Shown here piece by piece: positions 2,878-61,446 of a DNA stretch of 64,000 nucleotides. This DNA comes from Escherichia phage NHEP1. Position 1 is the first letter of the stretch; each line of letters starts with the position of its first letter. The notes below the pieces were generated by a model that was given only the letters and a program-made list of their open reading frames with translations, made no database searches and was not told the origin of the DNA. The translations under genes and the position numbers were made by a program. Location of the stretch: the sequence record PQ511146.1; one strand, 5' to 3'.

Positions 2878-4997
2878 AAATTGTAAAACGGGACGGTAGA
2901 GAAGAGGTCTATAACGGAGTTAAGGTAATCAAGGCGGCAGAGTCCGCCTTACTTGAGTCTGGGCATACTGAAGAAGAAGCTTACCGGATCGCTTGTACGG
3001 TTAATGAAGTTGTTGCCAACAATCTACCAACCGACCAGTGCACGATCTCTGTAAAAAATATCCATATCCTTGTTGAAGATGCTCTTATGGATATGGGTTT
3101 AAAATGTGCAGCCAGAGAATATATCCAGTATAGACAGACAAGAGATAATAACAGAGAGGCAGGTGGAAAACTGCTTGCAGATATTAGTGGCTTCTTGGAT
3201 CGAACTTGTGATGAATTTACAAAAGAAAACGCAAATAAGCCCACTAATCATGTACATACTCATCGTGACCTGCTTGCAGGTATCCTTAGCAAACACCTTG
3301 CATCAACACAGATACTGCCAGATCGTGTCTCCGAAGAGCACAACAAGGGATTCATCCATGTGCATGATCTTGACTATCTGATCAGTCCGTTAACAAACTG
3401 CTGTTTGGTGAATTATCCGGATATGCTGGAAAACGGATTCAACATTGGCAACGCCCATGTCAGTAAGCCGAAGTCAATAGGGGTTGCAACAACAATCCTC
3501 AGCCAAATCTCTAGTGCAGTAGCTAGTGCTCAATATGGTGGTCAGACCATGAGCCATATTGATCATTACCTGGCGCAGTATGCTGAAGCAACCTATGAGA
3601 AGAATCTTAAATTTTGTCAGGAACATTGGTTGCCGGATGCTGAGACTGTTGCAATGCAAATGACGGATAAAGACGTGTTTGATAGTATGCAAACTTTGCT
3701 ATACCAAATCAATACGTTAACTTCTGTCAACGGGCAAACCCCATTCATCACATTAAGTTTAGGACTGGATACCTCAATCTTTGGTAGAATGATTACCAAA
3801 AACTACCTGAAAGTCCACAAAATGGGTCTTGGTGAAGAACGTATCACACCTGTGTTCCCTAAGGTGCTGTTCTTCCTGGAGGAGGGTATCAACATGAACC
3901 CTGGGGATCCTAACTATGATTTGAAACGATTAGCTCTGGAATGCTCTGCAGAGCGGATTTATCCTGACTTCGTATCTGTACCACTAAATAGAAAAGTGAC
4001 AGGTTCAACAGAAGGTAATGTCACAAGCATGGGTTGCCGGAGTTTTCTTAGCAAATACAATGACTTGGAAACAGGAGAGGAGAAATACCTTGGCAGATTT
4101 AACTTAGGTGTTGTTAGCCTTAACCTACCAATGATTGCGGCAAAAGCTAAAACGGAAGGTGTTGATTTCTTTGCAGTTCTTGACGAGTACTTGGATCTGG
4201 CATACGAGGCTCACCTTGTAAGGGTTAACCGTCTAAAAGGAACAAAGGCAGGGCAGAACCCCATCATGTGGTGTGAAGGAGCCCTTGCTCGCCTGGATCC
4301 TGAAGAGAGCATTGATAAACTCTTCTATGACGGGTATGCTTCCATAAGTATTGGGTATATTGGTGTGTATGAAACCTGCCAGATTTTAGGCAGAGAGGGA
4401 GACAAGTCCTTAGCTCTTGGGATCCTTCAACACATGAAAGACGCTTGTGATCGGTACAAAAAAGAAAGTGGTCTGGCATTCAGCTTGTACGGCACTCCTT
4501 CAGAGAGCTTGTGCTATAAGGCTGCAACATGTCTAGATCGTGAATACCCTGAAGTGTTGAAGCACGAGCACGAATACCTTACCAACAGTTTCCACCAACC
4601 CGTGTGGATCAATAGCTCACCTTTTGACAAGTGGAAGTATGAGGAAGGTTTTGCTATGATCTCTTCTGGCGGCAACATTGGATACATAGAAACACCTAAC
4701 CTGAAAAACAACCTGGATGCTTTGGAATCCCTTGTCGATTTCGGGTATAAACACATTATGTATTTTGGTATTAACCAACCTGTGGATAAATGTCTTAAGT
4801 GCGGATTCTCTGGTGAGTTCAGTGCAACAGCTAAAGGCTTTGTATGCCCAGAGTGCGGAAACCATGAAGAGGGAACGATCAGTGTGATTAGACGTGTATC
4901 TGGGTATCTGTCCAGTCCAAACTCCCGCCCTTACAATAAGGGTAAGCAGGCTGAGGTTATAGAACGGGTTAAGCACTACGGAAGTTGTGGTTGCTGA
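2874..4997 (+). CDS. nrdD: Anaerobic ribonucleoside-triphosphate reductase (class III)
   Basis: 707 aa; C-terminal zinc ribbon CLKCGF...CPECG and glycyl-radical motif RVSGY. Confidence 0.9.
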   Translation: MKIVKRDGREEVYNGVKVIKAAESALLESGHTEEEAYRIACTVNEVVANNLPTDQCTISVKNIHILVEDALMDMGLKCAAREYIQYRQTRDNNREAGGKLLADISGFLDRTCDEFTKENANKPTNHVHTHRDLLAGILSKHLASTQILPDRVSEEHNKGFIHVHDLDYLISPLTNCCLVNYPDMLENGFNIGNAHVSKPKSIGVATTILSQISSAVASAQYGGQTMSHIDHYLAQYAEATYEKNLKFCQEHWLPDAETVAMQMTDKDVFDSMQTLLYQINTLTSVNGQTPFITLSLGLDTSIFGRMITKNYLKVHKMGLGEERITPVFPKVLFFLEEGINMNPGDPNYDLKRLALECSAERIYPDFVSVPLNRKVTGSTEGNVTSMGCRSFLSKYNDLETGEEKYLGRFNLGVVSLNLPMIAAKAKTEGVDFFAVLDEYLDLAYEAHLVRVNRLKGTKAGQNPIMWCEGALARLDPEESIDKLFYDGYASISIGYIGVYETCQILGREGDKSLALGILQHMKDACDRYKKESGLAFSLYGTPSESLCYKAATCLDREYPEVLKHEHEYLTNSFHQPVWINSSPFDKWKYEEGFAMISSGGNIGYIETPNLKNNLDALESLVDFGYKHIMYFGINQPVDKCLKCGFSGEFSATAKGFVCPECGNHEEGTISVIRRVSGYLSSPNSRPYNKGKQAEVIERVKHYGSCGC

Positions 4998-10887: not shown

Positions 10888-11124
10888 ATGAGTATAGATG
10901 CTGTGCTGATAGGTTACCTGGTAGTAGCTGTTATAACAGCAGTAATCTTGGCAGGTATATGCATCGTGTCTACACGAAGGGTGAAGTTTGATGATTTTAT
11001 CACCATCATCACTGCTGCGCCCTTTTGGCCTGTTGTTATCTTCATCGTAATAATGTGCCTAGTTGATTACCACAAGAATACCCGTAAGGAGAAAAAGGAG
11101 AGTAGGGATGGATACCGCACCTAA
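10888..11124 (+). CDS. Small membrane protein
   Basis: Hydrophobic N-terminal segments; RBS AAGGAGGAG. Confidence 0.5.
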   Translation: MSIDAVLIGYLVVAVITAVILAGICIVSTRRVKFDDFITIITAAPFWPVVIFIVIMCLVDYHKNTRKEKKESRDGYRT

Positions 11125-11239
11125 AACTGTTTATACTGTTCTTAAAGAGATTGCGTTCTACGCAGATCTTAGCCGGGCACCTTTATGGGAAAAGAATATG
11201 TATTTAAAATGGTGCGTGAAATTAGAGGGGGCCTTCTAA
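11108..11239 (+). CDS. Small ORF (43 aa)
   Basis: AAGGAGAG RBS 7 nt upstream; TAATG overlap with next small ORF. Confidence 0.3.
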   Translation: MDTAPKTVYTVLKEIAFYADLSRAPLWEKNMYLKWCVKLEGAF

Positions 11240-11358
11240 TGTTTCAAGCCATGTTTATTGAAATGCTCTCTGGGGTATTACTGCTGGTAGCCATTTTGGG
11301 TGGCGCGGCACTGATGTATAATTATCTTGAAAAAGGAGACAGTAATGACAAAAAATAA
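11239..11358 (+). CDS. Hydrophobic micro-protein (39 aa)
   Basis: MFQAMFIEMLSGVLLLVAILGGAALMYNYLEKGDSNDKK; overlaps next gene by 14 nt; junction sequence repeated at 18635-18659. Confidence 0.35.
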   Translation: MFQAMFIEMLSGVLLLVAILGGAALMYNYLEKGDSNDKK

Positions 11359-20763: not shown

Positions 20764-23270
20764 CACACAAGTCTGCTTTGCAGGTTTAGCTGCTCAGCTA
20801 AGGTTCTGGAGGCACCTATAACATCTTCCAACTAAATTTCCTACCAACACAGTTACTTACCTACCACACATGACTGTTTGCTTGTTTAGTGAGCAGTCAT
20901 CACTTGACATTCTTGCCTATCTTGATAAAATTAAGTTCTTCTCTTTTCTTTTACCGAGTAATTCGGGTTTTCTGTTCTCTTCGGTTTGAAGGGGTATGGA
21001 GATACACCTGAGTGAACAGGGTGAACAACCGAACCTTTAGCTATGGCATTAGCATGGCGAAGCGGACGGGTGACGAAAGAGGGGCCGGAGGACACCAGTC
21101 ACTGCCATATAGTATATGGGTGATAACCTGAAGAGTCTGAATAAGTGTTTAAGTACCAGTCAGAGGAAAAGGTGAATGGTAGCCGAAGGGGGAGGGGGGT
21201 TTCTTATATCTTTAATTTGTATACTTTATATACACTTGTAAACCAATTCAATTAGAATCTGTTTACCACACAAAGGGGATGGAGACAAATATCACCTATT
21301 AAACTTGAATTATTTATAGAAAATACCACAACACCCGTTAAGTCTTTGATTTTACACACAAATCTTACAAATATCCTACCTCCACATTTAACATACTTGT
21401 AACATATTCCATATCCTACCTGCCTGATCAATTTACTCCATCACATTCCCACATTTTCCCTGTCTGTACTACCCCACCCCCGCCGGGAGTCCCGTCATAT
21501 CTGGCTTTCCAGCAAATATCACACCAACAAATATCATCACCTGAAGAGGGTTTCATCCCATAATACCTGCCTTACCTGAAGAGCGCTTCATACACCACGT
21601 AAATTTTTTAATTGACCCCTCCCCGCCGCCAGAGAGGTTGGCTTTTCCCACACAGGCCTGAAGAGTCAGCCAGAAATATCTGAACAGGCAGTTATGTCCC
21701 GATTTTGTGCTTGTCCTACAGGAGTGCTGCCAGGCGGACGGAATGGGAATACTTCTCATTCTTATAATAATTCTCAAATATCGAGGCAGTGAGGCAAATT
21801 AATAGGCCAGGCCGTTCACACAGTGGCACAACATTTGCAATCTATCTTGTGTGGATGAATGAGAATACCTATCATTGTGAGAATGGTTATCATTACGGGC
21901 AATTTAACATAATACCCATTATGCGCACCACTGGCGATACATACAGGGATTGATAACATGGGTTACTGTTTACGCATATAACAATTATATTTCTTACTAT
22001 TTGTGTGGGATATAGTTAGCAACCAATAGATTAGATATTGACCTGCAGACTTCTGACCGTCCAGACGTCTAAACGCCCACACAACAAGGATTATACATAC
22101 ACTCCTGCATGTAACCAGGGCCGCAAAAATGCTACCATACCAGTTTGTAAATTTTTCATGCAGCACTTGACAAAGAGGAGAAAAACTTGTCTGACACAAT
22201 GTGACAATTTTGTCACTTTTGACACTTTTACCTTTGACACAATATGACACAATAACGGCTGTTACTATTCCATATCTCACTGTTTACGCCTGAATAGTTT
22301 ACGCAAAAACTGTTTACACAGAGATGATAAGCCATGCCATTCGTTTGCATGAAAACAATTAACAAGATAACAATTGACAAGCTAACAGCCAACAAGCTGA
22401 CAGTTAATAAGTTAATAAGTTATGACATAATATAAAAGCAGGGCAACTATTAGAAGATCTATAGTTGCCTTGCTTGTTATGTCATGATTAACTAAATACA
22501 AGGCAACTATGATCTGAATAATAGATTGCAGACAAACTATCACGGGGGTGATTGTTACTGCTTTTATATTATGTCGCGACTCCGTCGCGCCATGCCATTC
22601 GTTTGCATAGTTGCCTTATTGTTACAGGTAAAACAATTACATTATTAATTATTTCTTATCTTTCTCTTAGTCATCTAATGATTCCAGTCAGTATAGTAAT
22701 GTACAGTAAACATTAGACGACTAAATATTTCTCTGTGTATAATAACTTATCGTGACAATTTCGAACTGTTTACGAAAAATGTTGACACCTGAGCTGATTT
22801 ATGTTATGCAGTTTACACGAATAATTATTTTATGCAGGTATTGACTATTCCGTTATTCTGTGGTTGGAATAAATACTTTGCAGACTATAGAATGGCGTGC
22901 GTACGTGAATTCTGAGATCTGGCGGCTATAGTTATACTCGATTTTTCGCGTAGAACACGCTTTCGATGCTGTGTAAGTGTATGACTTATAAAGATTTTTA
23001 GTTGTTGACAAGATATTGGAGATGTGCATCAGGTTAAAATTTGTGCAATAGCGGCATTACGTGCACTTTTGGGAGAGAAAACGGGTAAAAATGGCCCTGC
23101 TACCACACAATGAAAGATTATGCAATAGTTATTTTCCATGTATATTTGTACAGTATGTGGGATTGATGGCTAGTCAATTATTCCACTTGCCAGGTAGGGC
23201 CGTTTATGGTAGGAGAAGAGCAGACAAAAAGAAAGGGGCCTTTAAGCCCCTTGATAATTCAGTTAAGAAA
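20764..23270. repeat. ORF-poor, repeat-dense non-coding zone at the convergence of plus and minus transcription blocks
   Basis: No convincing ORF of 100 aa or more; at least five short repeat families seen (see findings). Confidence 0.6.
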
Positions 23271-23690
23271 TTATAATGATTCGTATATTTCAAAAATCCG
23301 ATTTGCCAGGTCGTTACGGTAGCGGAATTTTTCATCGCGCTTGATCATTAAATCCTTATAGCCGTACTCTTTAAGCACTTCATTAACTTTATAGCGGCAT
23401 ACCTGCATATTATCTTGAGCGTCACCAATAAACTTGTTGCTGTGGTGCATTGCTTTAATTTCTTCTTCCAGGACCAGGGCAACTACCCGGACCGGATCAA
23501 GCTGATAGGCGGTAACATCTATGCGGCATTGTAGACGGCTTTTAACGTCTGCCACCGGATATACTGCAACCTCTTCCCCGTCAACATTGACAATAATTAG
23601 TTTACCATCGATTTCGAATCCTTTCGCCGCCGGACCGTGACAAAAAGCGTTATCAAAGCTATATGCCGGATTATCAGATTTAATGTTCAT
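23271..23690 (-). CDS. Hypothetical protein
   Basis: Track ORF 139 aa; ATG with AGAGG RBS. Confidence 0.5.
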   Translation of the reverse strand: MNIKSDNPAYSFDNAFCHGPAAKGFEIDGKLIIVNVDGEEVAVYPVADVKSRLQCRIDVTAYQLDPVRVVALVLEEEIKAMHHSNKFIGDAQDNMQVCRYKVNEVLKEYGYKDLMIKRDEKFRYRNDLANRIFEIYESL

Positions 23691-42507: not shown

Positions 42508-45500
42508 CTGTGATCTGGAACGGAACGCCCATCATTTTAGAAGCCTGCCAGAAGCAATGCACCACCATTTCGCCCACAGGGCTCCAGATAAGCTCAAGCT
42601 TTCCGTCATCATTCAAGATAGGATCGTATACCGTATTTCCATCCTTGTCAACCACTTCGTTTCCGTCCTCATCTTTGCGTGCCTTTTTGTACTTATGACC
42701 GTCGAACACATGAAGTTTAGCCTCTTGTTGGGCTTTAAATGTTTCCAGCTCTTCAATTGTGTCGAAGGTGTATACGGTTTTATACTTAGGTGTGTCAGGC
42801 ACTTGAAGCTGATATTCGTCATGGTAATAGATAATACGACGAACACCCTCATCATACCATCCACGCTTCACCATCTGGTGGTGCATGAGGATTCCGACCA
42901 AGTCGCACAACGATGCACCGCCATTTTGCTGATATGCATTAAGCAAAGAGTGTTTAGAGCGGGTCCAAATGGCATGCCCGTCAAAAGAGTAGATAAATTT
43001 CTTACCTGTTGCTTCCCAGAATTTCTCCAGATCCTCTTTACGCCCCTTAAGGCCCGGGTTGGCATCCCAGAGAGCATCAATTACTCTCTGTCCAAGTTCT
43101 GGAGAGATATCTAGCATATCTGCAACTTTATCTTTTTGTGCCCCGTACATAACCCCATATGTGACAGGCTTACCATCGTTACGGGAAATCTCCTTGCCTG
43201 CTACAGAAGAGTAAGCTTTGGCGTTATTACAGTTACCGCACACTGCCACTTTACCATTCCTTCTCACAATGATTGCTCCAGAAGGGACGGTAACGCAATA
43301 AACCAAAGAACCGCTCACCTCGACAGACTCTTTAGATAGTGTCAGCAACCCTGCTCTCTGTTTGCTACCAATCGTGATTCTGTGCTGTACGGAACGACCT
43401 TTTTTGTGAATCGCCACCGTATTATTCCGTAAACCACACTGAGTAGCCAGCGCAGACACAACCTCTACAGATTTCTTCCTGCACCCGGCCTGAGAGTAGT
43501 AGGCAACTTTTCCACCTTCGGAAGATACCCACCCGTCCCAGTTAGATAAAGAAGCTATAAACAGGTTTTTAGATTCTTTATCAAGGTCCATCAGGTTGTA
43601 GGTGAAATCCTTATTGCTGTCCAAAAACTCAAATACCCAGGACGGAACGTGGAATTGGAACCTTCTCGCCAGTAAGCCCCCTTTTGTGGTTTTCCCGCTC
43701 TGCTCTACATAACTAAGGCTTAGAGCAGAAAAAGTATCTAAAAGCGTTGCAACTTTTCTGCCCTTCCCGACCTGAATCCTGCACACGATGCTGCCGTCCT
43801 TATTTGTATGCAAGTGCCCATCATCGTGAATAGCAATAAGCAAATTAACCTGGGCAGGAGATAAGGTTGTATTCCCATAAAACTCTGCCGCATGGATAAA
43901 CCTTCTTCCTGAATTAGACCCTTTACCTGCTTTCAGGTCTTTTGCCAAATCTTCAAACAATTTATTGCTTCTGTGATCCACGGTCAGCATCCTGTGTTGA
44001 TCTGTAACCATAAAATCCACACTGCTGTTGTGGAAATGATACATATCCCCACAATAACTACGCTTAACGTAATTTAATGGAGTAACAAGGTTCATCGACG
44101 AGGTGTTGTGATCGTACTGGAACACCTGTGTTCCCGGATCAAGATCTTCAAACCTCACCCACCCTTTCTCCGTGAGAATTTGTGTATCTCCTGAATAACA
44201 GTGTGCATCGCCGTTACTTACAACATCATAATACAGACCGTTGTCAAACTCAAAGGCACCCCAGGCCCCGATGAGCTGCTCTAAGTTGGACCCGTCAATA
44301 CCGATCTCAAAGTATCCTGGAGGAACACCCCACAGACTACGCATCTCTTTACCCATAACCACTTTAGGAGATGGTTTAGGCATGTTTGCACAAATACTAT
44401 GTTTCTGTCTGGAAGTGTTTGTTAATCCAGAACTTTTAGCAGGAAGCTTGTGGTCAATCTTCAAACGTGGATGATTAAGAAGACCAGTATCAACCTTATC
44501 TTCCTTGATTGGATCAAGGACCGATCTGCGGTTTCGCAATGATAACCACAAAACGATATCTTTAGCCATCTCTCCGTTCAATTTTTCAAGATTCGGGCAC
44601 AGGTGTCCAAACGTATCTTTCAGTTGCGGAGAAGTAATAAGCGCTCTGGCTTTTCTACGTATCTTCCCAAACACTTCCTTTTTAATCCTTTCTGAGTTAG
44701 GGAAGCTTCGGAACTTATGCACAGTTGTCTGGAACTTGGCATCAGTTTTGTTCCAGAAGTTGATAATTAGATCACAATACTCTGACTCCAAAAGCTCGTC
44801 CATATATGCATATACTCGTGCATCAACATCTGCATCAGGTAAAGCTTTCTTCTTGCTGTCTTTAGTTACATCTTTAGTTCTCCACATTGTTGGGAGCCAA
44901 CCAGCACTGATCAGGTATCGCTTGATGTCGTCCTGATTGCTGATTTTCATAGGTATCTTGCAGTCAGGCATTCGCTTCTGCTGTAGGTCACTTATCGCCT
45001 GATCCATCAGCTCTTTAGGTAAAGGGTGTGGTGTAGAAGTTCCTTTGATATACCCCCTCAAGAAATCAGCCATCTTATCGGGGTCTTTACAGCCCATCTC
45101 TTCACACCATTTTATCCCCATCTTACTTACATCCCCTGTGGAGGTAAATGCTCGCTTAGGAGGAGCTTTGAACTCTAAAGCACTCATGTCCACAGGGTAG
45201 CCAAGCTTGTCTTTTAACCATTTCCAACCATTATTGGAGATTGTCCCATCTTGGTTAAACGGCTTTTCAGGGAACTTAGGCCGCTGAGACATTGATAACT
45301 CTTTTAAAGGAAGTTGTGGTTCAACACGATCAGCGATCTCTTTCATCCACGCATCGCAACGGTCACGTAAAGCAATAGCCCCATCTATGTCGAAATACAC
45401 CCCCTGTCGAGCCTGCAGCTCCATCAGGAAGTGCTGTAACATGCCTCGGCGTAATGCGTTCTTCCAGGTGATCTTCTTGAAGCCTTTCGGCTTCTCTTTG

Positions 45501-48350: not shown

Positions 48351-49134
48351 TAATTCTTCTCCTTACTGCAGGCTCGTTTGCTAAGAATACAGCTCTTGCC
48401 CAGCCACGTGGTGTAAGGCTTCGAATCATCTTCGTCCTTGCACTCTTTCCACCTAGCTTAGCGTGTTGCATGGAATAACCACTAACCGCATCAACTATTT
48501 GCGGGACAGGTTTTGTGGCGGGGATTATAAATCCATTGCCTATCCAACCGCAAGTTATTTTTGGGTAGGCATCACGTGGAGCTATAAATTCAGGAAACCA
48601 TGGGTTTACATCATCCTCTGGTAAATACCCACCATAATCCGAAGGATGAAAACGGTAATCAGGTTTTCGCCACAGTGTTGACATAACTCCTACAGGGTTC
48701 TCTACATGCCACGGGCAATCGTAAATCTCTCCCAACTCTTCTGCAACCCGAGCATCTTTCACAGCATTAATTTGGATCAGAGGATCCTTAGCCAGCTTTT
48801 TCTTAAAGTGTGCAGCTCCGGATACTGCTAAATGCGTGCACGGAGGAAATGCAAGAATAAAGTCTGGAGCCGGATACATGCAAAAAGTTTCTTGAGGGAA
48901 CCATGGATCAATCCAATAATCCACATAGTGAATGTTAGGATGATCGGTTATCACCTCTACATAACTACCGTGGTCAGCACCTTCTGCATTAAAGCACAGG
49001 CACAGGTACCCAGCTTTTGCCCAGTCAATAACTGCACCACCGGACCCGTCAAATAGACTCCACACGACACCTTTGTGGTAGTGTTCTTTGTAGATAAATT
49101 TCAATTTGCTGTCTCCTAATGCAAAAAGCCCCAC
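48340..49134 (-). CDS. Putative C5-cytosine DNA methyltransferase-like protein (start codon uncertain)
   Basis: Motifs LFDGSGGA (I-like), FPPCTHLAVSGA (PC motif), HVENPVG (ENV-like) in canonical order; track start is GTG inside a terminator hairpin, TTG at 49104 with GGAGA RBS is an alternative. Confidence 0.4.
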   Translation of the reverse strand: MGLFALGDSKLKFIYKEHYHKGVVWSLFDGSGGAVIDWAKAGYLCLCFNAEGADHGSYVEVITDHPNIHYVDYWIDPWFPQETFCMYPAPDFILAFPPCTHLAVSGAAHFKKKLAKDPLIQINAVKDARVAEELGEIYDCPWHVENPVGVMSTLWRKPDYRFHPSDYGGYLPEDDVNPWFPEFIAPRDAYPKITCGWIGNGFIIPATKPVPQIVDAVSGYSMQHAKLGGKSARTKMIRSLTPRGWARAVFLANEPAVRRRINGQ

Positions 49135-52157: not shown

Positions 52158-53524
52158 ACGTCCCCCTTTTCTGCTCTAGTTTCAAAATCTTTCCTGACTT
52201 TCTCGTCTAAGCCAGGGAAAGTTGTATTATAAAACTCTACGACTCTCGGGTCAACAATAATATCCACCTCTCTTAATGGACGCAACAAGTTTATTCCTTG
52301 TATCGTCTTAACCCGACTCAAGGCAACATACGTCATTCCGGGAGAGAAAGCTCCGTTCTTTCCGAGGTCTAGGTTGTAACAATCTAACGTAAGTCCTTGA
52401 CTTTTATGCGATGTTACTGCGTACCCAGATTTCAAAGGAAGTTGCTCATAAGACCCGATCACAACCCTCTCTATGAACTTCTCCATCTTCCTTTCGGCAA
52501 TATTGTACCTCTGGGAAGGTTTGTACTCGTTATTCTCCCACAATCTCGGCTCAATTTCAACCTGTGTCCCGTCTTCCAGCTCAACCACCACAGACTTGGT
52601 CTTGAATTTTACCACTGTGGCGCGTGTCCCGTTGACATAGTACGGAACTTTATGTGTCGGGTCAACATCGTTTGAGGTTATCATAACCTTCATCCCTATC
52701 TTCAGCCTCATTTCCTGCTCCACAGGCAGTGTGGAGGGGAACTTACCTTTCATTTTACCAATGTAGGTCTTCTCTGGGGCCTTGATGGCATCATAGAAAC
52801 GTCTGTTCACCTCCTCTGCTTGCTTATTGGTGGCACAGATGGTCAAGGCATCTGTTGGGACACCACCATGATAGCAACGAGTGTTAAGCTCTGCTACAAC
52901 CTCTTTTATGCGACGACCTTCACGAACACAGTTCAACATTGTGGCGAAGCGAACAGATTCCTGACGGAACTGGTCTACTAATGCTATATTGTGAAGATTA
53001 AGATCCTCCCAAGATTTTGTATAGCAACACAGGTCTGTGTGGTAGAAGTTGAAGTAGGCTTCTTTCTCCATAGAAGAGACAACTGGGGGTGCTTGGTAGA
53101 AATCTCCAAACAATAGCACCTGAATGCCTCCGAAAGGTTTGTCATTTTTCCGAAGAAAGCGGAGTTTTCTATCCATCTCTATGAACTTGTCAGCACGGAT
53201 CATAGAGATTTCATCGATAATTAGGATGGTAAATGCCTTGCTTTTCAGAGGCTTTGCTGTTTTTGCCCTTATTGCTGTCCAGTCTGACTCCATGCTCACA
53301 CCTGCGGCAAGATCGAAAGTTCGGTGCGCTGTTGCTCCATTAACGTTTAAAGCGGCTACCCCTGTCGGGGCAACCGTTATGCAAGAGTCTCCATACATGG
53401 ACTGGATCATGTTGATAAGATATGTCTTCCCGGTTCCACCGGGTCCACTTACGAAGACATTCTCACCACTCATGATTGCAACAAGGGCAGCATCTGTGCC
53501 TACATCGTACTGCCCTTTTTCCAT
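52154..53524 (-). CDS. SF1 DNA helicase, Dda/RecD-like
   Basis: Walker A GPGGTGKT; IIDEISM Walker B-like; HKSQGLT motif. Confidence 0.85.
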   Translation of the reverse strand: MEKGQYDVGTDAALVAIMSGENVFVSGPGGTGKTYLINMIQSMYGDSCITVAPTGVAALNVNGATAHRTFDLAAGVSMESDWTAIRAKTAKPLKSKAFTILIIDEISMIRADKFIEMDRKLRFLRKNDKPFGGIQVLLFGDFYQAPPVVSSMEKEAYFNFYHTDLCCYTKSWEDLNLHNIALVDQFRQESVRFATMLNCVREGRRIKEVVAELNTRCYHGGVPTDALTICATNKQAEEVNRRFYDAIKAPEKTYIGKMKGKFPSTLPVEQEMRLKIGMKVMITSNDVDPTHKVPYYVNGTRATVVKFKTKSVVVELEDGTQVEIEPRLWENNEYKPSQRYNIAERKMEKFIERVVIGSYEQLPLKSGYAVTSHKSQGLTLDCYNLDLGKNGAFSPGMTYVALSRVKTIQGINLLRPLREVDIIVDPRVVEFYNTTFPGLDEKVRKDFETRAEKGDV

Positions 53525-54765
53525 TACGCCTCCTCGTAGATAATGTCGATAGTATTACCGTCGCGGTCAACCACGTACTCAATTGGGTCGCCATCTTTGC
53601 GTGATTCTGGAGCTACTACGATTTCGTAGCGGCATGCACGGCACTTGGCGCTGTTGTGTTGGTAAGGTACACTAACTACATCAGCAGGGTCAACCATGAC
53701 CGTCATCACAGTTCCGTAGCTCTTTGCATACTCTTTGCTGGCACAGTGCAGGCCATAAGAGCATGCAGCTTCCGGATCATCCTCTACAAAGTTACGGGGC
53801 ATGGATACAAAAGCTCCCTGGTATTGTGGGACTTTACCACTGTGCCAATCCACCCACTTGTCGCCGTTAAACTGAACCCCTTTGTAGCAAATGATTCGAC
53901 CATCTTCTGCAATCTGAATGTCGTTTGCCTGCATAAAATCGTAGAGCATGTTTACAGATTTTGCAGAAGGATTGCGTAGCAGGCGAACGAGGAATTTCAC
54001 ATAGCGGTCATCCAGTGTTCCGTCTGCATAATCTTTCTCAATTTTCTTTGCAATGGTGGATCGCATCTCTACACCGTAGTAGTAGAGCTTACCATCTTTC
54101 ATGATCAGGTTGTCTGCAAGTGTGGTGAACTCATTCTTGCGTTCCAGCCAGACAAGGATTTCACCAATTGCCTCGTCATATTCCTGAACAGAGATATGGT
54201 CGAAGACTTTCTGGTAAACTTCCTCACTTTCACTGCGGCGAATTTCAAAAATACCTTCGTTGCAGGTGATCTGGAGGAGTTCCCCGCAAATAACCACCAA
54301 AGGCTCGATGCTTCGGGTCTGTTGCTGAGACACACTGCTCACCACCTCCAGCACCGGGTCTTTTACTTCTACTAAAGGTTCTTCTGACTTGATTGCTACC
54401 CCAGTGAACCCTACACCGTGAACAACACACAGTGGATATACCACACCCCAACGTTTAACGGAACCTTCTCCTGAATCTAAGATCATGGCGTACTTACCGT
54501 TATCTTCCAGCCCATATCGAAATAAACGGGCCTCTTCACGGGTTTCAAAATCCTCACGGGTGTAGCAGACGCTGTCACGGTCAGGATCGAACAACTCTGG
54601 GGCACCTACTGCCAGTGTCCAGGTTGTGTTACCTTTCTCAATAGCGCATGTGAAACCCTTCTTCTCAAGCTCTGCACGGCGGTCACGTGCTTCTTTACGA
54701 GTTTTGAAATGTTCGTAGATGAAAATCATCTTGGTCTCCTTATTTGATGTTATTCTTTGTATCAA
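53524..54765 (-). CDS. rIIB: rIIB-like protein
   Basis: Motifs LYDFMQANDIQIAEDG and ACSYGLHCASKEY...VVSVPYQHNSAKCRACRYEIV resemble T4 rIIB; adjacent to rIIA. Confidence 0.8.
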   Translation of the reverse strand: MIQRITSNKETKMIFIYEHFKTRKEARDRRAELEKKGFTCAIEKGNTTWTLAVGAPELFDPDRDSVCYTREDFETREEARLFRYGLEDNGKYAMILDSGEGSVKRWGVVYPLCVVHGVGFTGVAIKSEEPLVEVKDPVLEVVSSVSQQQTRSIEPLVVICGELLQITCNEGIFEIRRSESEEVYQKVFDHISVQEYDEAIGEILVWLERKNEFTTLADNLIMKDGKLYYYGVEMRSTIAKKIEKDYADGTLDDRYVKFLVRLLRNPSAKSVNMLYDFMQANDIQIAEDGRIICYKGVQFNGDKWVDWHSGKVPQYQGAFVSMPRNFVEDDPEAACSYGLHCASKEYAKSYGTVMTVMVDPADVVSVPYQHNSAKCRACRYEIVVAPESRKDGDPIEYVVDRDGNTIDIIYEEA

Positions 54766-56722
54766 TCAGTTCACGGTATTCAATCATAGCAGGAGTGTCC
54801 CAATATTTCAAGCCTACATGCTTCAAAAGTGGATATTTCTTTTCCAATCTTGCAATATAGGCCTTCCCGCACTTAACCCGGTTGGCGATTAAGATTTTGG
54901 CACGATGATTTAGCTCACCGTACTTCCACGTGGTGCTACCTTCCCACTTGTGGAAATGTGGCCGATAACTTCCAAAATCCTGCATGGGGATAATTTTACC
55001 TAACTGTCTGTACAGGCTGTCATATGAAGTTTCATTTGCTGCGCGAGTTAGTAAGAATTTCCAAGCATCCTCTTTCAACAAATGTTCCACATTCTTCTCT
55101 GTAACATATTGGCAATCAGGATCAGTCCAAAGCAGACGAGATTCCGACACCAGGTACAGATCTTCCCCTTCAGGAATCTGGAGTGCCGCACGCACACGGT
55201 CATAATCTTGCTGGTAGATGTTGCTCATCTGCCCTAGCCAACAACTTCCGCGTTGGATATCCCCCTCATACGGTATGCAGTGCTTAATCTTCCTGAACTC
55301 TGCCTTAGTAATACGCTCACGCCGGAAGTAACCATCCTTCTCAAGTTTTTTAACCCAATAGCCTGGTTCGTAACGGGTTTTGGTTTCACCTTTCTTCGTA
55401 GGTCGGCGTGGAAGCTCCGATAACAATTTGACCGTATCTGCAAAAAACGGATGGTGTGCCGCCTCTTTAAACTCTTTCACCAGATCCGTGTTACGGCAAT
55501 AGAAAACGTTGCGTCCGGTAATCTCGCTTAAGTAGTTACACTTATTCCGGTTATATTTGCCGTCTCCGTCGTTAAATACTAAATAAACTCCCCGTAAGAA
55601 TTCTACCTTTCCGTAGCAGGCGTAACCTATGCGGCCTTTATTTAAGCCGCCAGCGAAGATCTCGCAGTCCCCCAAATTTCCTAGCCCTGTTTCTTCCCAG
55701 CGGTCATACATAAAATTCTTACCGAAGATGTGCCCGAACACTCCACTGTTCTTCATCATCTCGCGTGCTTCTGAGGATGTTTTTGCTGTCTCCAGTTCTG
55801 CAACAACTTCTGCTCCACGAAGGCGAATGCCTTCTTTGACAAAAGCTTCCAAACGCTCTTGGAATCCACCATCGTCGTGACCTTCTATGGTCCATTCACG
55901 CCCTGGGTTAATATTGCAATCTCCGATAGGGATCTCTACACAAATTGCAGGATAATCTATTAGTGTCTCCAGGAACTTAGAACGGTAAGGTTGGTGACCC
56001 ATTACCACACGACTCTCGTCAGAGCTGGTATAACCCTTCAGGATGGTCATCTTCCAACCATCTTTTTCATAATAATACTGCGCCTCTACTTTGTCTCCCT
56101 CCAGCATCTTGCTCGTCATCGGGTCGGTGACAGTGAACGGAAATTTTGCATAGCGCAGGCATGATGCAATAGCGGTGCGATATTTCAGAACATGCTCTTT
56201 CTTAACATGAAACTGAACTTTTACCCCGTTGTGCTCTTCAGTCTTCCGCTCACGGATCTTGGTGACATTTGGGATACCCTGGTCCAAGAACAATAGGTAT
56301 GTGCTTTCCACACCGTTGTGCACACTGATTACATCGAAAGTGTCCACCATACTGAACGGGGCCTTTGAACCAACACCTTTATTGCCTACCAGAGCGTTGC
56401 TGTTGCGCTTGGTTGACTCTCCGAGGTTCATGAAGGTGTTGCGGACCATCTCTTCTGACATGCCTAATCCAACGTCCTGCACAAAGAAGTATGGTTCAAG
56501 GTCTGTAGGAGAGTGAATGATGATCGGAACATCACCCCGTCCAGACTCAACATGGGAGTCCACAGCATTGAAGATCGGTTCACGGCAGCTTGCCAGCACC
56601 TTATCTTCATAAATCCCTTTGATGATTAGCCCAAAAGTCTCTTTGTTCAGAGAAATTGATCCCCTGGTTACCTCCATATTCCCAGTTAGCACCGCTTTAG
56701 TTTCACTGCTGTTTACAATCAT
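54740..56722 (-). CDS. rIIA: rIIA-like protein (GHKL ATPase-like N-terminus)
   Basis: LEPYFFVQDVGLGMSEEM and VGNKGVGSKA motifs resemble T4 rIIA N-terminal domain. Confidence 0.85.
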   Translation of the reverse strand: MIVNSSETKAVLTGNMEVTRGSISLNKETFGLIIKGIYEDKVLASCREPIFNAVDSHVESGRGDVPIIIHSPTDLEPYFFVQDVGLGMSEEMVRNTFMNLGESTKRNSNALVGNKGVGSKAPFSMVDTFDVISVHNGVESTYLLFLDQGIPNVTKIRERKTEEHNGVKVQFHVKKEHVLKYRTAIASCLRYAKFPFTVTDPMTSKMLEGDKVEAQYYYEKDGWKMTILKGYTSSDESRVVMGHQPYRSKFLETLIDYPAICVEIPIGDCNINPGREWTIEGHDDGGFQERLEAFVKEGIRLRGAEVVAELETAKTSSEAREMMKNSGVFGHIFGKNFMYDRWEETGLGNLGDCEIFAGGLNKGRIGYACYGKVEFLRGVYLVFNDGDGKYNRNKCNYLSEITGRNVFYCRNTDLVKEFKEAAHHPFFADTVKLLSELPRRPTKKGETKTRYEPGYWVKKLEKDGYFRRERITKAEFRKIKHCIPYEGDIQRGSCWLGQMSNIYQQDYDRVRAALQIPEGEDLYLVSESRLLWTDPDCQYVTEKNVEHLLKEDAWKFLLTRAANETSYDSLYRQLGKIIPMQDFGSYRPHFHKWEGSTTWKYGELNHRAKILIANRVKCGKAYIARLEKKYPLLKHVGLKYWDTPAMIEYRELIDTKNNIK

Positions 56723-57219
56723 TTATTGCGCTCCTTGTAGTAGATATGACTCCCGAATTGAGCTGTCCTCTGCATCTTTTTTGCCCATTTCGGTCGTACT
56801 TTTGTTGTATGGTAGTGTGTTGCTCCGCCTGTTATATCCATAGCCATGTATGCAACATGGTTGTTATTATAGACCTTTAGAAGCATCTTTGCAAGACTTT
56901 TAGCGTGATCCCATGAATCTTTTTCTGTCACCTTAAAAGTTTTGCCGTGGTTTGTCCACGAAAACTGGTTAGGTTGGTAGACAATCTTTCTTATAGTGTC
57001 TGGGTATTTGGGGTGAGATTTCCTGTTTAGTGTGGCAAACCCAGATGCCAGCATACCCATCGTGCCATCCCCTCTAGCCTCCCTGTAGATATTGCATGCC
57101 AGAATGTTTTCCTTAGTATCCGACGGCTTGCAGGTGTGATATACTTTTTGTTTTGGTGCTGCAACAACAGGCAGCGATAAAAATGCGCTCAAAATAATAG
57201 CAAAGATCTTAGTTTTCAC
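56719..57219 (-). CDS. Secreted cell-wall hydrolase, SleB/CwlJ (Hydrolase_2) family
   Basis: N-terminal signal-peptide-like segment; NIYREARGDG...ATLNR...IVYQPNQFSW motif. Confidence 0.75.
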   Translation of the reverse strand: MKTKIFAIILSAFLSLPVVAAPKQKVYHTCKPSDTKENILACNIYREARGDGTMGMLASGFATLNRKSHPKYPDTIRKIVYQPNQFSWTNHGKTFKVTEKDSWDHAKSLAKMLLKVYNNNHVAYMAMDITGGATHYHTTKVRPKWAKKMQRTAQFGSHIYYKERNK

Positions 57220-57224
57220 AATAG

Positions 57225-57250
57225 CTCCAAATAGAAAATCCCCGCCGAAG
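57225..57250 (-). terminator. Terminator hairpin (minus strand)
   Basis: Minus strand CCCCGCTTCGGCGGGG followed by ATTTTCTATTT. Confidence 0.5.
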
Positions 57251-57268
57251 CGGGGTGTGTCTTAGAAA

Positions 57269-61375: not shown

Positions 61376-61446
61376 ACTATATCGTGGATTTAGAGTAAAG
61401 TCAACACGTTTTTCAGGTTGACATCTTCTCAGGCACTTGGTAAGAT
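61376..61446. promoter_or_regulatory. Divergent sigma70-like promoter pair
   Basis: Plus: TTGACA (61418-61423)-N17-TAAGAT (61441-61446); minus: TTGACT (plus 61399-61404)-N17-TATAGT (plus 61376-61381). Confidence 0.5.

Follow-up and report, generated by a model that had tools for sequence, protein, structure and literature searches.

A predicted Sec-exported SleB/CwlJ-family hydrolase encoded beside the rII genes of Escherichia phage NHEP1 as a candidate accessory muralytic enzyme

The window analysed here, a stretch of 64,000 nt from the genome of Escherichia phage NHEP1 (PQ511146.1), encodes a cell-wall hydrolase of the SleB/CwlJ (Hydrolase_2) family immediately upstream of rIIA. The reading that we favor, at somewhat better than even confidence, is that this protein is a Sec-exported accessory muralytic enzyme that works beside a canonical lysozyme. 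It would be made with a classical cleavable Sec signal, exported and cleaved after Ala20, and the basic mature enzyme of ~146 residues would then fold in the periplasm, probably with a disulfide between Cys30 and Cys42. There, this single-domain enzyme, with Glu47 as its predicted catalytic residue, would cut peptidoglycan in its glycan strands. As the second muralytic enzyme of the phage, produced at a low level from an early/replication transcription unit, it would need no holin to gain access to the sacculus, which it would weaken or remodel ahead of lysis and while lysis proceeds; overt lysis would be held back until the membrane is de-energised, by analogy with Kayvirus Tgl and fOg44 Lys44. 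The principal endolysin would be the cytoplasmic, lambda-R-like GH104 lysozyme of rV5-like phages (rV5 gp89/LysECP26), acting together with spanins.

In many unrelated large virulent phages of Gram-negative hosts, a canonical endolysin is accompanied by a SleB-type hydrolase with a predicted Sec signal. Should the exported enzyme condition the wall ahead of lysis, or serve a non-lytic role, this would bear on models of lysis timing and would be of consequence for the habit of naming every PF07486 phage gene an "endolysin".

A known gene of rV5-like phages

The hydrolase gene is already known and annotated, and its phage genus has been well sampled. The window is that of a Vequintavirus: over 5.7 kb, the region shares 98% identity with Escherichia phages S127 BCL3, B9-1 and vB_EcoM-ECP26 (122 records match), which belong to this genus of rV5-like myoviruses with genomes of ~136 kb. 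More than 100 phage records contain genes with 98-99% identity to the hydrolase, under the names cell wall hydrolase, SleB or endolysin. Its rV5 counterpart, gene 2, is listed as ‘cell wall hydrolase’, with 166 aa, an isoelectric point of 10.0 and PF07486 (Table S3 of PMC3606486). Vequintavirus records hold the same gene, of the same 166 aa, at the same place 5’ of rIIA and behind the same upstream terminator, t003. Orthologues across the Vequintavirinae include rV5 gene 2, ECP26 QDB73441.1, CB7_83, CR3_087 and P7_95; in those of Certrevirus and Mydovirus, at ~51-53% identity, the catalytic motif is preserved together with the signal peptide and the Cys30/Cys42 pair. Certrevirus differs in that the rII genes are absent and that, in some members, a small gene encoding two transmembrane domains (TMDs) follows the hydrolase homologue and overlaps its end.

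HMMER, run exhaustively against 1.84 billion representative proteins in place of a word-indexed search that gave 10 proteins, returned 11,332 relatives at E <= 0.001. One Mydovirus orthologue, that of Klebsiella phage VLCpiM5b (locus L007, 3992-4531), is 5’-truncated as deposited (coding sequence 4148-4531, 127 aa): homology and the signal peptide (…NLKLKNLILATACVFSLATTPVLA|KD) reach ~150 nt further 5’, and the extended orthologue has a GTG or TTG start directly after a terminator hairpin.

An intact catalytic domain of the SleB/CwlJ family

Members of the SleB/CwlJ (Hydrolase_2) family have a lytic-transglycosylase-type fold and cut peptidoglycan glycan strands by means of one catalytic Glu, a role established by the structures of SleB from B. 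anthracis and B. cereus. The translation of the NHEP1 open reading frame (ORF), which includes CNIYREARGDG and KIVYQPNQFSWT, matched positions 2-100 of the 100-position Pfam Hydrolase_2 profile (PF07486) with 70.4 bits (gathering cut-off 27; E = 2.1e-19), as well as PHROG 938, ‘endolysin’ (E = 1.7e-27), both at levels well outside what chance would give. The hits of a phmmer search against PDB sequences were SleB catalytic domains only (4F55 from B. cereus and 4FET from B. anthracis), aligned over residues 38-160, with Glu47 opposite the Glu of YGESRGE in SleB. Among the 165 sequences of an alignment composed of the best 150 homologues and reference sequences, the Glu47 column held Glu in 163, Arg66 was found in all, and Q85-F-S-W88, W145 and H158 were near-invariant. 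An AlphaFold model based on an 11-sequence alignment had a mean pLDDT (predicted local distance difference test) of 87.9, with values above 90 for the domain and of 48-54 for the first 20 residues, and its significant Foldseek matches in the PDB were three SleB chains (4F55/4FET) only, at 22-23% identity, with template-modelling (TM) scores, normalised to the target, of 0.73-0.79 and E values of 3e-5 to 6e-5. Judged from its sequence, the catalytic apparatus of the family is intact.

The likeness to Bacillus SleB/CwlJ (4F55, 4FET; TIGR02869) lies in the fold of the catalytic domain and in the catalytic-Glu motif YxE[AS]RG. True orthology with SleB was rejected, as the protein scored 48 bits in the TIGR02869 equivalog model against a cut-off of 236.5 and is without the N-terminal peptidoglycan-binding domain (a Pfam search of the hydrolase found no PG_binding domain). 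Unlike SleB, the phage hydrolase has no PG_binding_1 domain and carries disulfide-type cysteine pairs that SleB lacks; moreover, the murein of its host is without muramic-delta-lactam, and its role would be in phage infection rather than in spore germination.

The distance from Bacillus SleB, together with the equivalog score far under the cut-off and the non-canonical GTG start, could also be read as the mark of a protein that is catalytically dead and only binds the wall or acts as a decoy, or of a cytoplasmic protein made without its export signal from a downstream start codon. We consider this very improbable, as the catalytic Glu and all of the family-invariant residues are kept, a GGAG Shine-Dalgarno sequence stands 5 nt ahead of the GTG, the signal character of the N-terminus persists in homologues at 35-81% identity while its sequence changes, and toxicity upon expression was reported for a homologue.

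A predicted cleavable Sec signal

The first 22 residues read MKTK / IFAIILSAFLSL / PVVA|AP, that is, two Lys followed by a 12-residue, Gly-free hydrophobic core, a Pro at -4 and a V-x-A motif at -3/-1. The best 10-residue Kyte-Doolittle window of this N-terminus scores 2.95, with the two Lys preceding it and no Gly or Cys inside. Conservation of the layout was followed in the 157 homologues that have enough sequence ahead of the catalytic motif: the hydrophobic run begins within the first 15 residues in 145 of them, and an N-terminal 10-residue window of at least 2.0 is found in 144. Under a permissive rule, by which a compatible -3/-1 site had to lie no more than 12 residues from the core, 133/157 had both core and site, seven had a lipobox and 17 had neither, so that export signals are present in ~85-90% of the top homologues. 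The signals of Mydovirus, Certrevirus, Phapecoctavirus and T5-like phages share almost no sequence with that of NHEP1 but have the same n-h-c architecture, and signal peptides have been predicted for the Certrevirus homologues CB7_83 and P7_95 (PMC7344957, PMC9769974). Because the n-h-c layout with its PVVA|A site is present in the NHEP1 protein and recurs across its homologues, the N-terminus looks like a cleavable Sec signal rather than a signal-arrest-release (SAR) anchor.

A first-pass annotation of this DNA, made from its letters without database searches, had noted the Hydrolase_2 ORF with a signal-like N-terminus beside rIIA and rIIB and had proposed a secreted peptidoglycan hydrolase of the SleB/CwlJ family. 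Both observations hold, the first by the ORF itself and its PF07486 and rIIA (PHROG 612) matches, and the second, as a prediction, by the domain, the fold, the catalytic Glu, the family-wide export signals and the covarying cysteine pairs described below. Its further suggestion of a SAR-type endolysin agrees less well with the protein. A SAR enzyme, or an otherwise principal endolysin of this kind, would be tethered in an inactive state in the inner membrane and freed once a pinholin depolarises it, a scenario that we judge quite unlikely here. The N-terminal hydrophobic segment does span 17-18 uncharged residues, and signal peptides on lysins of Gram-negative phages are often taken as SAR domains; however, the core is short, contains no Gly and runs into a helix-breaking Pro and a standard signal-peptidase site (V-V-A|A), and the homologues share the cleavable layout or have lipoboxes. 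Composition gave no separation between SAR domains and classical signals in a small comparison, in which the OmpA signal was as rich in Gly, Ala, Ser and Thr as the SAR domains.

Covarying cysteine pairs

Cys30 and Cys42 occur together in 32 homologues, whereas Cys42 is found alone in 13 and Cys30 alone in none. An alternative pair, at positions 39 and 77 in the numbering of the NHEP1 protein, is complete in 112 other homologues, with its two members occurring singly in 0 and 1 cases. The two pairs are largely mutually exclusive, and Bacillus SleB has neither; after the signal, 108 of the 157 homologues have exactly two cysteines and 27 have four. Structural disulfides in E. coli form in the periplasm. 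Since the members of each pair co-occur almost perfectly, their covariation, which is a small new addition of this analysis, argues indirectly for disulfides formed in an oxidising, extracytoplasmic compartment, and hence for a periplasmic enzyme.

An odd N-terminus was seen in the Pakpunavirus homologue from Pseudomonas phage Henu5 (locus L004, 5824-6384), METLEALVLSILLAFIGMFLDMEYSRLKYGKE, in which the flank ahead of the hydrophobic segment is acidic and the one behind it basic. Under the positive-inside rule, the catalytic domain of this homologue would lie in the cytoplasm, or the protein would use a different mode of export.

A separate lysozyme and spanins

In the rV5 genome, gp89 (Phage_lysozyme) was described as the ‘obvious lysin’ and gp129, a 78-aa protein with two TMDs, as a putative holin (PMC3606486). 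The gp89 orthologue of ECP26, LysECP26 (QDB73524.1), is a lambda-R-like protein of 156 aa that, when purified, lysed outer-membrane-permeabilised cells of 29/29 Gram-negative strains (PMC9728275). Its gene is found at 87949-88419 of the ECP26 genome, after DNA ligase, and an i-/o-spanin pair is found at 77080-77762, beside terminase. A gp89-type lysozyme is encoded by the closest relative of the NHEP1 region, S127 BCL3 (43238-43708), and by at least 80 phage records at >=90% identity. A second lysin inside the window was considered and rejected: the canonical lysozyme maps ~10 kb before the first base of the window, and tblastn of the window with LysECP26, with the 68-aa protein encoded downstream of it and with the next ORF gave no match. 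The spanins, like the lysozyme, are encoded outside the window, and the hydrolase gene does not cluster with holin or spanin genes. It is because rV5-like genomes encode this separate, experimentally tested lysozyme elsewhere that we assign the hydrolase an accessory role, in place of the endolysin role for which the first-pass annotation had made it a candidate.

That annotation had named, besides a lack of muralytic activity, a separate canonical endolysin-holin cassette that accounts for lysis as the finding that would speak against it. The lysozyme was found in rV5-like phages, as were the spanins, by terminase, so that this second point is largely borne out. A proven holin was not: a homologue of gp129 (78 aa, two transmembrane segments, Lys/Arg-rich C-terminus) is encoded at 10888..11124 (+) of the window, 46 kb from the hydrolase, and in a search for holins this protein and the other small membrane proteins matched only PHROGs without known function and no holin family. 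The gp129 homologue is followed by a gene for a 57-aa protein with a single TMD at 11185-11358 (+).

The same facts bear on the principal-endolysin scenario. In its favor, the family is called ‘endolysin’ by PHROG 938 and by many GenBank records, no holin has been identified for rV5-like phages, and in some Certreviruses the small two-TMD protein gene overlaps the end of the hydrolase gene. In NHEP1, by contrast, no gene for a small membrane protein adjoins the hydrolase, whose neighbors encode an acidic cytoplasmic 126-aa protein and rIIA, and the rV5-like phages have their own, experimentally lytic lysozyme.

Immediately after the canonical lysozyme, a 68-aa gene (ECP26 88483-88689; 48624-48830 of locus L002) encodes MKDFLLAILFMAACLAC..., with a lipobox-like L-A-C. 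It is kept in S127 BCL3 and belongs to PHROG 4641, which has no assigned function; from its sequence, the product may not be a holin but a small lipoprotein.

A comparable two-lysin pattern has been described in other large phages: Phapecoctavirus combines PF00959 with PF07486, in T5-like Salmonella phages the holin has an M15 peptidase next to it and the SleB-like gene is far away, BME3/PVP-SE1 have a canonical lysin plus a Hydrolase_2 hydrolase, and the jumbo phage PA5oct shows the same arrangement.

Gene neighborhood and alternative roles

The features of the hydrolase locus are collected in Table 1. Downstream, the gene is followed by rIIA (54740..56722; PHROG 612 match with E = 4.5e-123) and then by rIIB (53524..54765, minus strand), and translational coupling is possible through the ATGA at which the hydrolase and rIIA overlap. 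The program-called rIIB ORF starts at a TTG that lies 12 codons 5’ of the annotated start in ECP26 (401 aa), and the N-terminal part of rIIB has a weak, below-cut-off match to the SPOR domain (E = 0.0015), from which some records take the name ‘SPOR domain-containing protein’. Upstream of the hydrolase, profile matches identified the gene for an acidic soluble 126-aa protein and then a MoxR-type ATPase. The 126-aa protein corresponds to rV5 gp3 (PHROG 12370, no function assigned), which the rV5 table gives as a homologue of T5.083 (PMC3606486). A functional pair of hydrolase and gp3 was considered and dropped: the gene 5’ of the hydrolase homologue in a T5-like phage is unrelated, and tblastn with gp3 found nothing within 6 kb of the T5-like hydrolase homologue.

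Table 1. Coordinates of the hydrolase gene and of associated features in the window.
Feature	Position	Strand	Basis
Coding sequence of the exported Hydrolase_2 (SleB/CwlJ-type) cell-wall hydrolase (export predicted)	56719..57219	minus	ORF; 166 aa, GTG start; rV5 gene 2 ortholog
Shine-Dalgarno GGAG	57225..57228	minus	5 nt 5’ of the hydrolase GTG start; read from sequence
Predicted Sec/signal-peptidase-I signal peptide MKTKIFAIILSAFLSLPVVA, codons 1-20	57160..57219	minus	Sequence; predicted cleavage A20/A21
Cys30 (57130-57132) and Cys42 (57094-57096) codons, predicted periplasmic disulfide	57094..57132	minus	Co-occurrence across homologues
Glu47 codon GAG, predicted catalytic Glu in NIYREARG	57079..57081	minus	Aligned with the SleB Glu; conservation
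Hydrolase_2 catalytic domain	56737..57069	minus	Pfam, residues 51-161; SleB sequence/structure match from ~residue 38
ATGA overlap of hydrolase stop (TGA) and rIIA start (ATG)	56719..56722	minus	ORF coordinates and sequence
Intrinsic-terminator-like hairpin CCCCGC-TTCG-GCGGGG, then T-rich ATTTTCTATTT (rV5 t003)	57229..57255	minus	Between the 126-aa gene and the hydrolase gene
Sigma-70-like promoter TTGACT-17-TATAGT (rV5 P010, Table S4)	61376..61404	minus	Nearest strong promoter 5’ of the minus-strand unit of the hydrolase
Sigma-70-like match TTGCAA-17-TATAAT, 10 of 12	56866..56894	minus	Inside the hydrolase gene; consensus match only

The first-pass annotation had taken the proximity to the rII genes as a hint of a role in lysis. 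We rejected this adjacency as a functional clue, as it is not kept outside Vequintavirus and Mydovirus and is lost in Certrevirus, T5-like phages, Pakpunavirus and Phapecoctavirus. What recurs in the T5-like, Pakpunavirus and Phapecoctavirus loci is a position of the Hydrolase_2 gene among genes for RNase H, exonuclease, ligase, phosphohydrolase, glycosyltransferase and primase.

The annotation had also offered a virion-associated lysin that opens the wall for DNA entry during ejection. A peptidoglycan hydrolase in a myovirus might be expected to serve in this way, since such phages usually need to penetrate the wall, but we regard it as extremely improbable for this protein. The reading is unsupported because a Sec signal, which takes the protein out of the cytoplasm, is incompatible with virion assembly in that compartment. 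In addition, the gene lies outside the structural module, in a replication/regulatory module; gp2 is absent from the rV5 virion proteins named from mass spectrometry, as is the PA5oct homologue gp447 from PA5oct virions; and the Vequintavirinae already have a candidate for this task, a gp25-like baseplate lysozyme.

In four lineages the gene recurs within a replication/nucleotide-metabolism module, at a distance from the genes for holin, endolysin and spanins. This location agrees with another alternative, in which the enzyme remodels peptidoglycan in the periplasm in a non-lytic role during infection, outside the lysis programme. Possible roles of this kind are the release or recycling of muropeptides, a change in the sacculus that blocks division or allows the cell to enlarge, and interference with superinfecting phages. 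A sigma-70-type early promoter upstream and the absence of a late-promoter motif point the same way, as does the fact that many unrelated large virulent phages keep the gene together with an endolysin that is fully competent; furthermore, a study of PAK_P3 put forward its homologue, gp151, as an explanation of why cell-wall precursors build up during infection (PMC4933390). We nevertheless consider a purely remodelling enzyme unlikely. The PAK_P3 idea is a hypothesis from a discussion section; toxicity upon expression and an intact catalytic center fit a lytic enzyme equally well, and Kayvirus Tgl, an early-transcribed secreted hydrolase, is a genuine lysis helper. The broader form of the idea, in which the hydrolase is a widely shared infection-phase wall-remodelling factor of large virulent Gram-negative phages (Vequintavirinae, Stephanstirmvirinae, Demerecviridae, Pakpunavirus/Nankokuvirus and some jumbo phages) that is secreted early and at low dose, seems to us more doubtful still. 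If true, it would explain both the retention of the gene beside a competent endolysin and its constant location in the replication module.

Comparison with other secreted phage lysins

For the favored reading, that of an exported accessory enzyme, the best experimentally characterised analogue is Tgl of the Staphylococcus Kayviruses, a secreted lytic transglycosylase with a cleavable AXA signal that is exported by the host Sec system (PMC7150955). It is transcribed by host RNA polymerase from a host-type promoter, lyses E. coli only when it carries its signal, and is restrained in S. aureus until the membrane is de-energised (PMC7150955), as lysis by the secreted endolysin Lys44 and by SAR endolysins such as P1 Lyz and phage 21 R is thought to be (PMC7150955). 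Akin to the NHEP1 hydrolase as read here, Tgl is a second muralytic enzyme beside a canonical holin-dependent endolysin. It differs in being a family-1 transglycosylase (pfam06737) rather than a Hydrolase_2 protein, in the Gram-positive host, and in its location three genes from lysK, whereas the canonical lysozyme here lies ~70 kb from the hydrolase.

Sec-secreted lysins such as Tgl and Lys44 of the Oenococcus phage fOg44 form a functional class and not a sequence family, and the n-h-c signal and AXA-type site predicted for the hydrolase fit this class, as does the folding outside the cytoplasm to which the cysteine pairs point. The likeness to Lys44 and to the SAR endolysins P1 Lyz and phage 21 R consists in a Sec-dependent access to the wall that is independent of a holin. 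SAR domains are uncleaved, Gly/Ala-rich anchors, and each of these enzymes serves its phage as the only or the principal endolysin; by contrast, the signal of the hydrolase looks cleavable and a separate principal lysozyme exists.

Closer in sequence are the homologues, with the same domain at 33-41% identity, of T5-like phages (Demerecviridae), Phapecoctavirus, Pakpunavirus/Nankokuvirus (PAK_P3 gp151) and PA5oct-like phages (gp447). These are small single-domain proteins with an N-terminal hydrophobic signal, encoded among replication and nucleotide-metabolism genes, and coexistence with another lysin is documented for the T5-likes, Phapecoctavirus and PA5oct. Most of them use the Cys39/Cys77-type pair, and the Pakpunavirus protein, with its acidic N-terminus ahead of the hydrophobic segment, may differ in topology.

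Predicted expression of the hydrolase

The terminator hairpin lies 20 nt 5’ of the hydrolase start. Its free energy was given as -16.0 kcal/mol for t003 in rV5 (Table S4 of PMC3606486), and the fold in NHEP1 has -15.8 kcal/mol (z = -1.69). Terminator-like hairpins that differ in sequence also occur directly 5’ of the Mydovirus and Certrevirus orthologues, so that the position of the upstream terminator is conserved in three genera of the Vequintavirinae; this, too, is a small new addition of our analysis. In the minimum-free-energy fold, an extended terminator stem sequesters the Shine-Dalgarno sequence, but this is not significant (z = -1.69) and is not claimed here.

Between the terminator and the hydrolase start there is no sigma-70-like match and no space for a promoter, and no late-type motif of rV5 (TGGTAAAATA) was found near the gene. 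Low expression is predicted from the GTG start, from the terminator just 5’ of the gene and from the lack of a recognisable promoter of its own, and the hydrolase may thus be made in small amounts by read-through from the early unit. The promoter-like site inside the hydrolase gene could drive rIIA and rIIB independently.

Points that weigh against an accessory exported enzyme

Several considerations count against the reading that we favor. Bacillus SleB requires muramic-delta-lactam, which is not present in E. coli murein; activity of the phage enzyme on normal murein is what we infer from the toxicity of a Certrevirus homologue and from other members of the family. This toxicity upon expression in E. 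coli was mentioned as ‘data not shown’ in the CB7 paper (PMC7344957), for a homologue that is only ~50% identical, and a literature search returned no experiment on the hydrolase or a close ortholog. Cleavage after Ala20 is a prediction from the architecture of the site, made by the permissive -3/-1 rule. As there is no established holin for rV5-like phages, the exported hydrolase could weigh more in lysis than an accessory role implies. The canonical lysozyme gene is itself located among DNA-metabolism genes, so that an accessory lysin and a principal one cannot be told apart by a place in the replication module alone. Finally, no transcriptome of a Vequintavirus was found in the literature, nor any transcriptome data for the T5 homologue, and the timing of expression is deduced from promoter and terminator positions.

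A repeat-bearing non-coding region

Elsewhere in the window, positions 20800-23300 contain a stretch of ~2.4 kb in which no ORF is convincing; its counterpart in rV5 is the region 104013-106618, reported as ‘non-coding’. The region lies where plus- and minus-strand transcription units meet, includes an AT-rich dip (GC fraction 0.35-0.37) and had no Rfam match. Within it, a repeat cluster at ~22190-22830 contains four copies of a TAAAAGCAGGGCAACTAT-like motif, which occurs in both orientations, together with a direct repeat of 20 nt (22331/22589) and an inverted repeat of 18 nt (22424/22558), both of them perfect, an arrangement that looks iteron- or origin-like.

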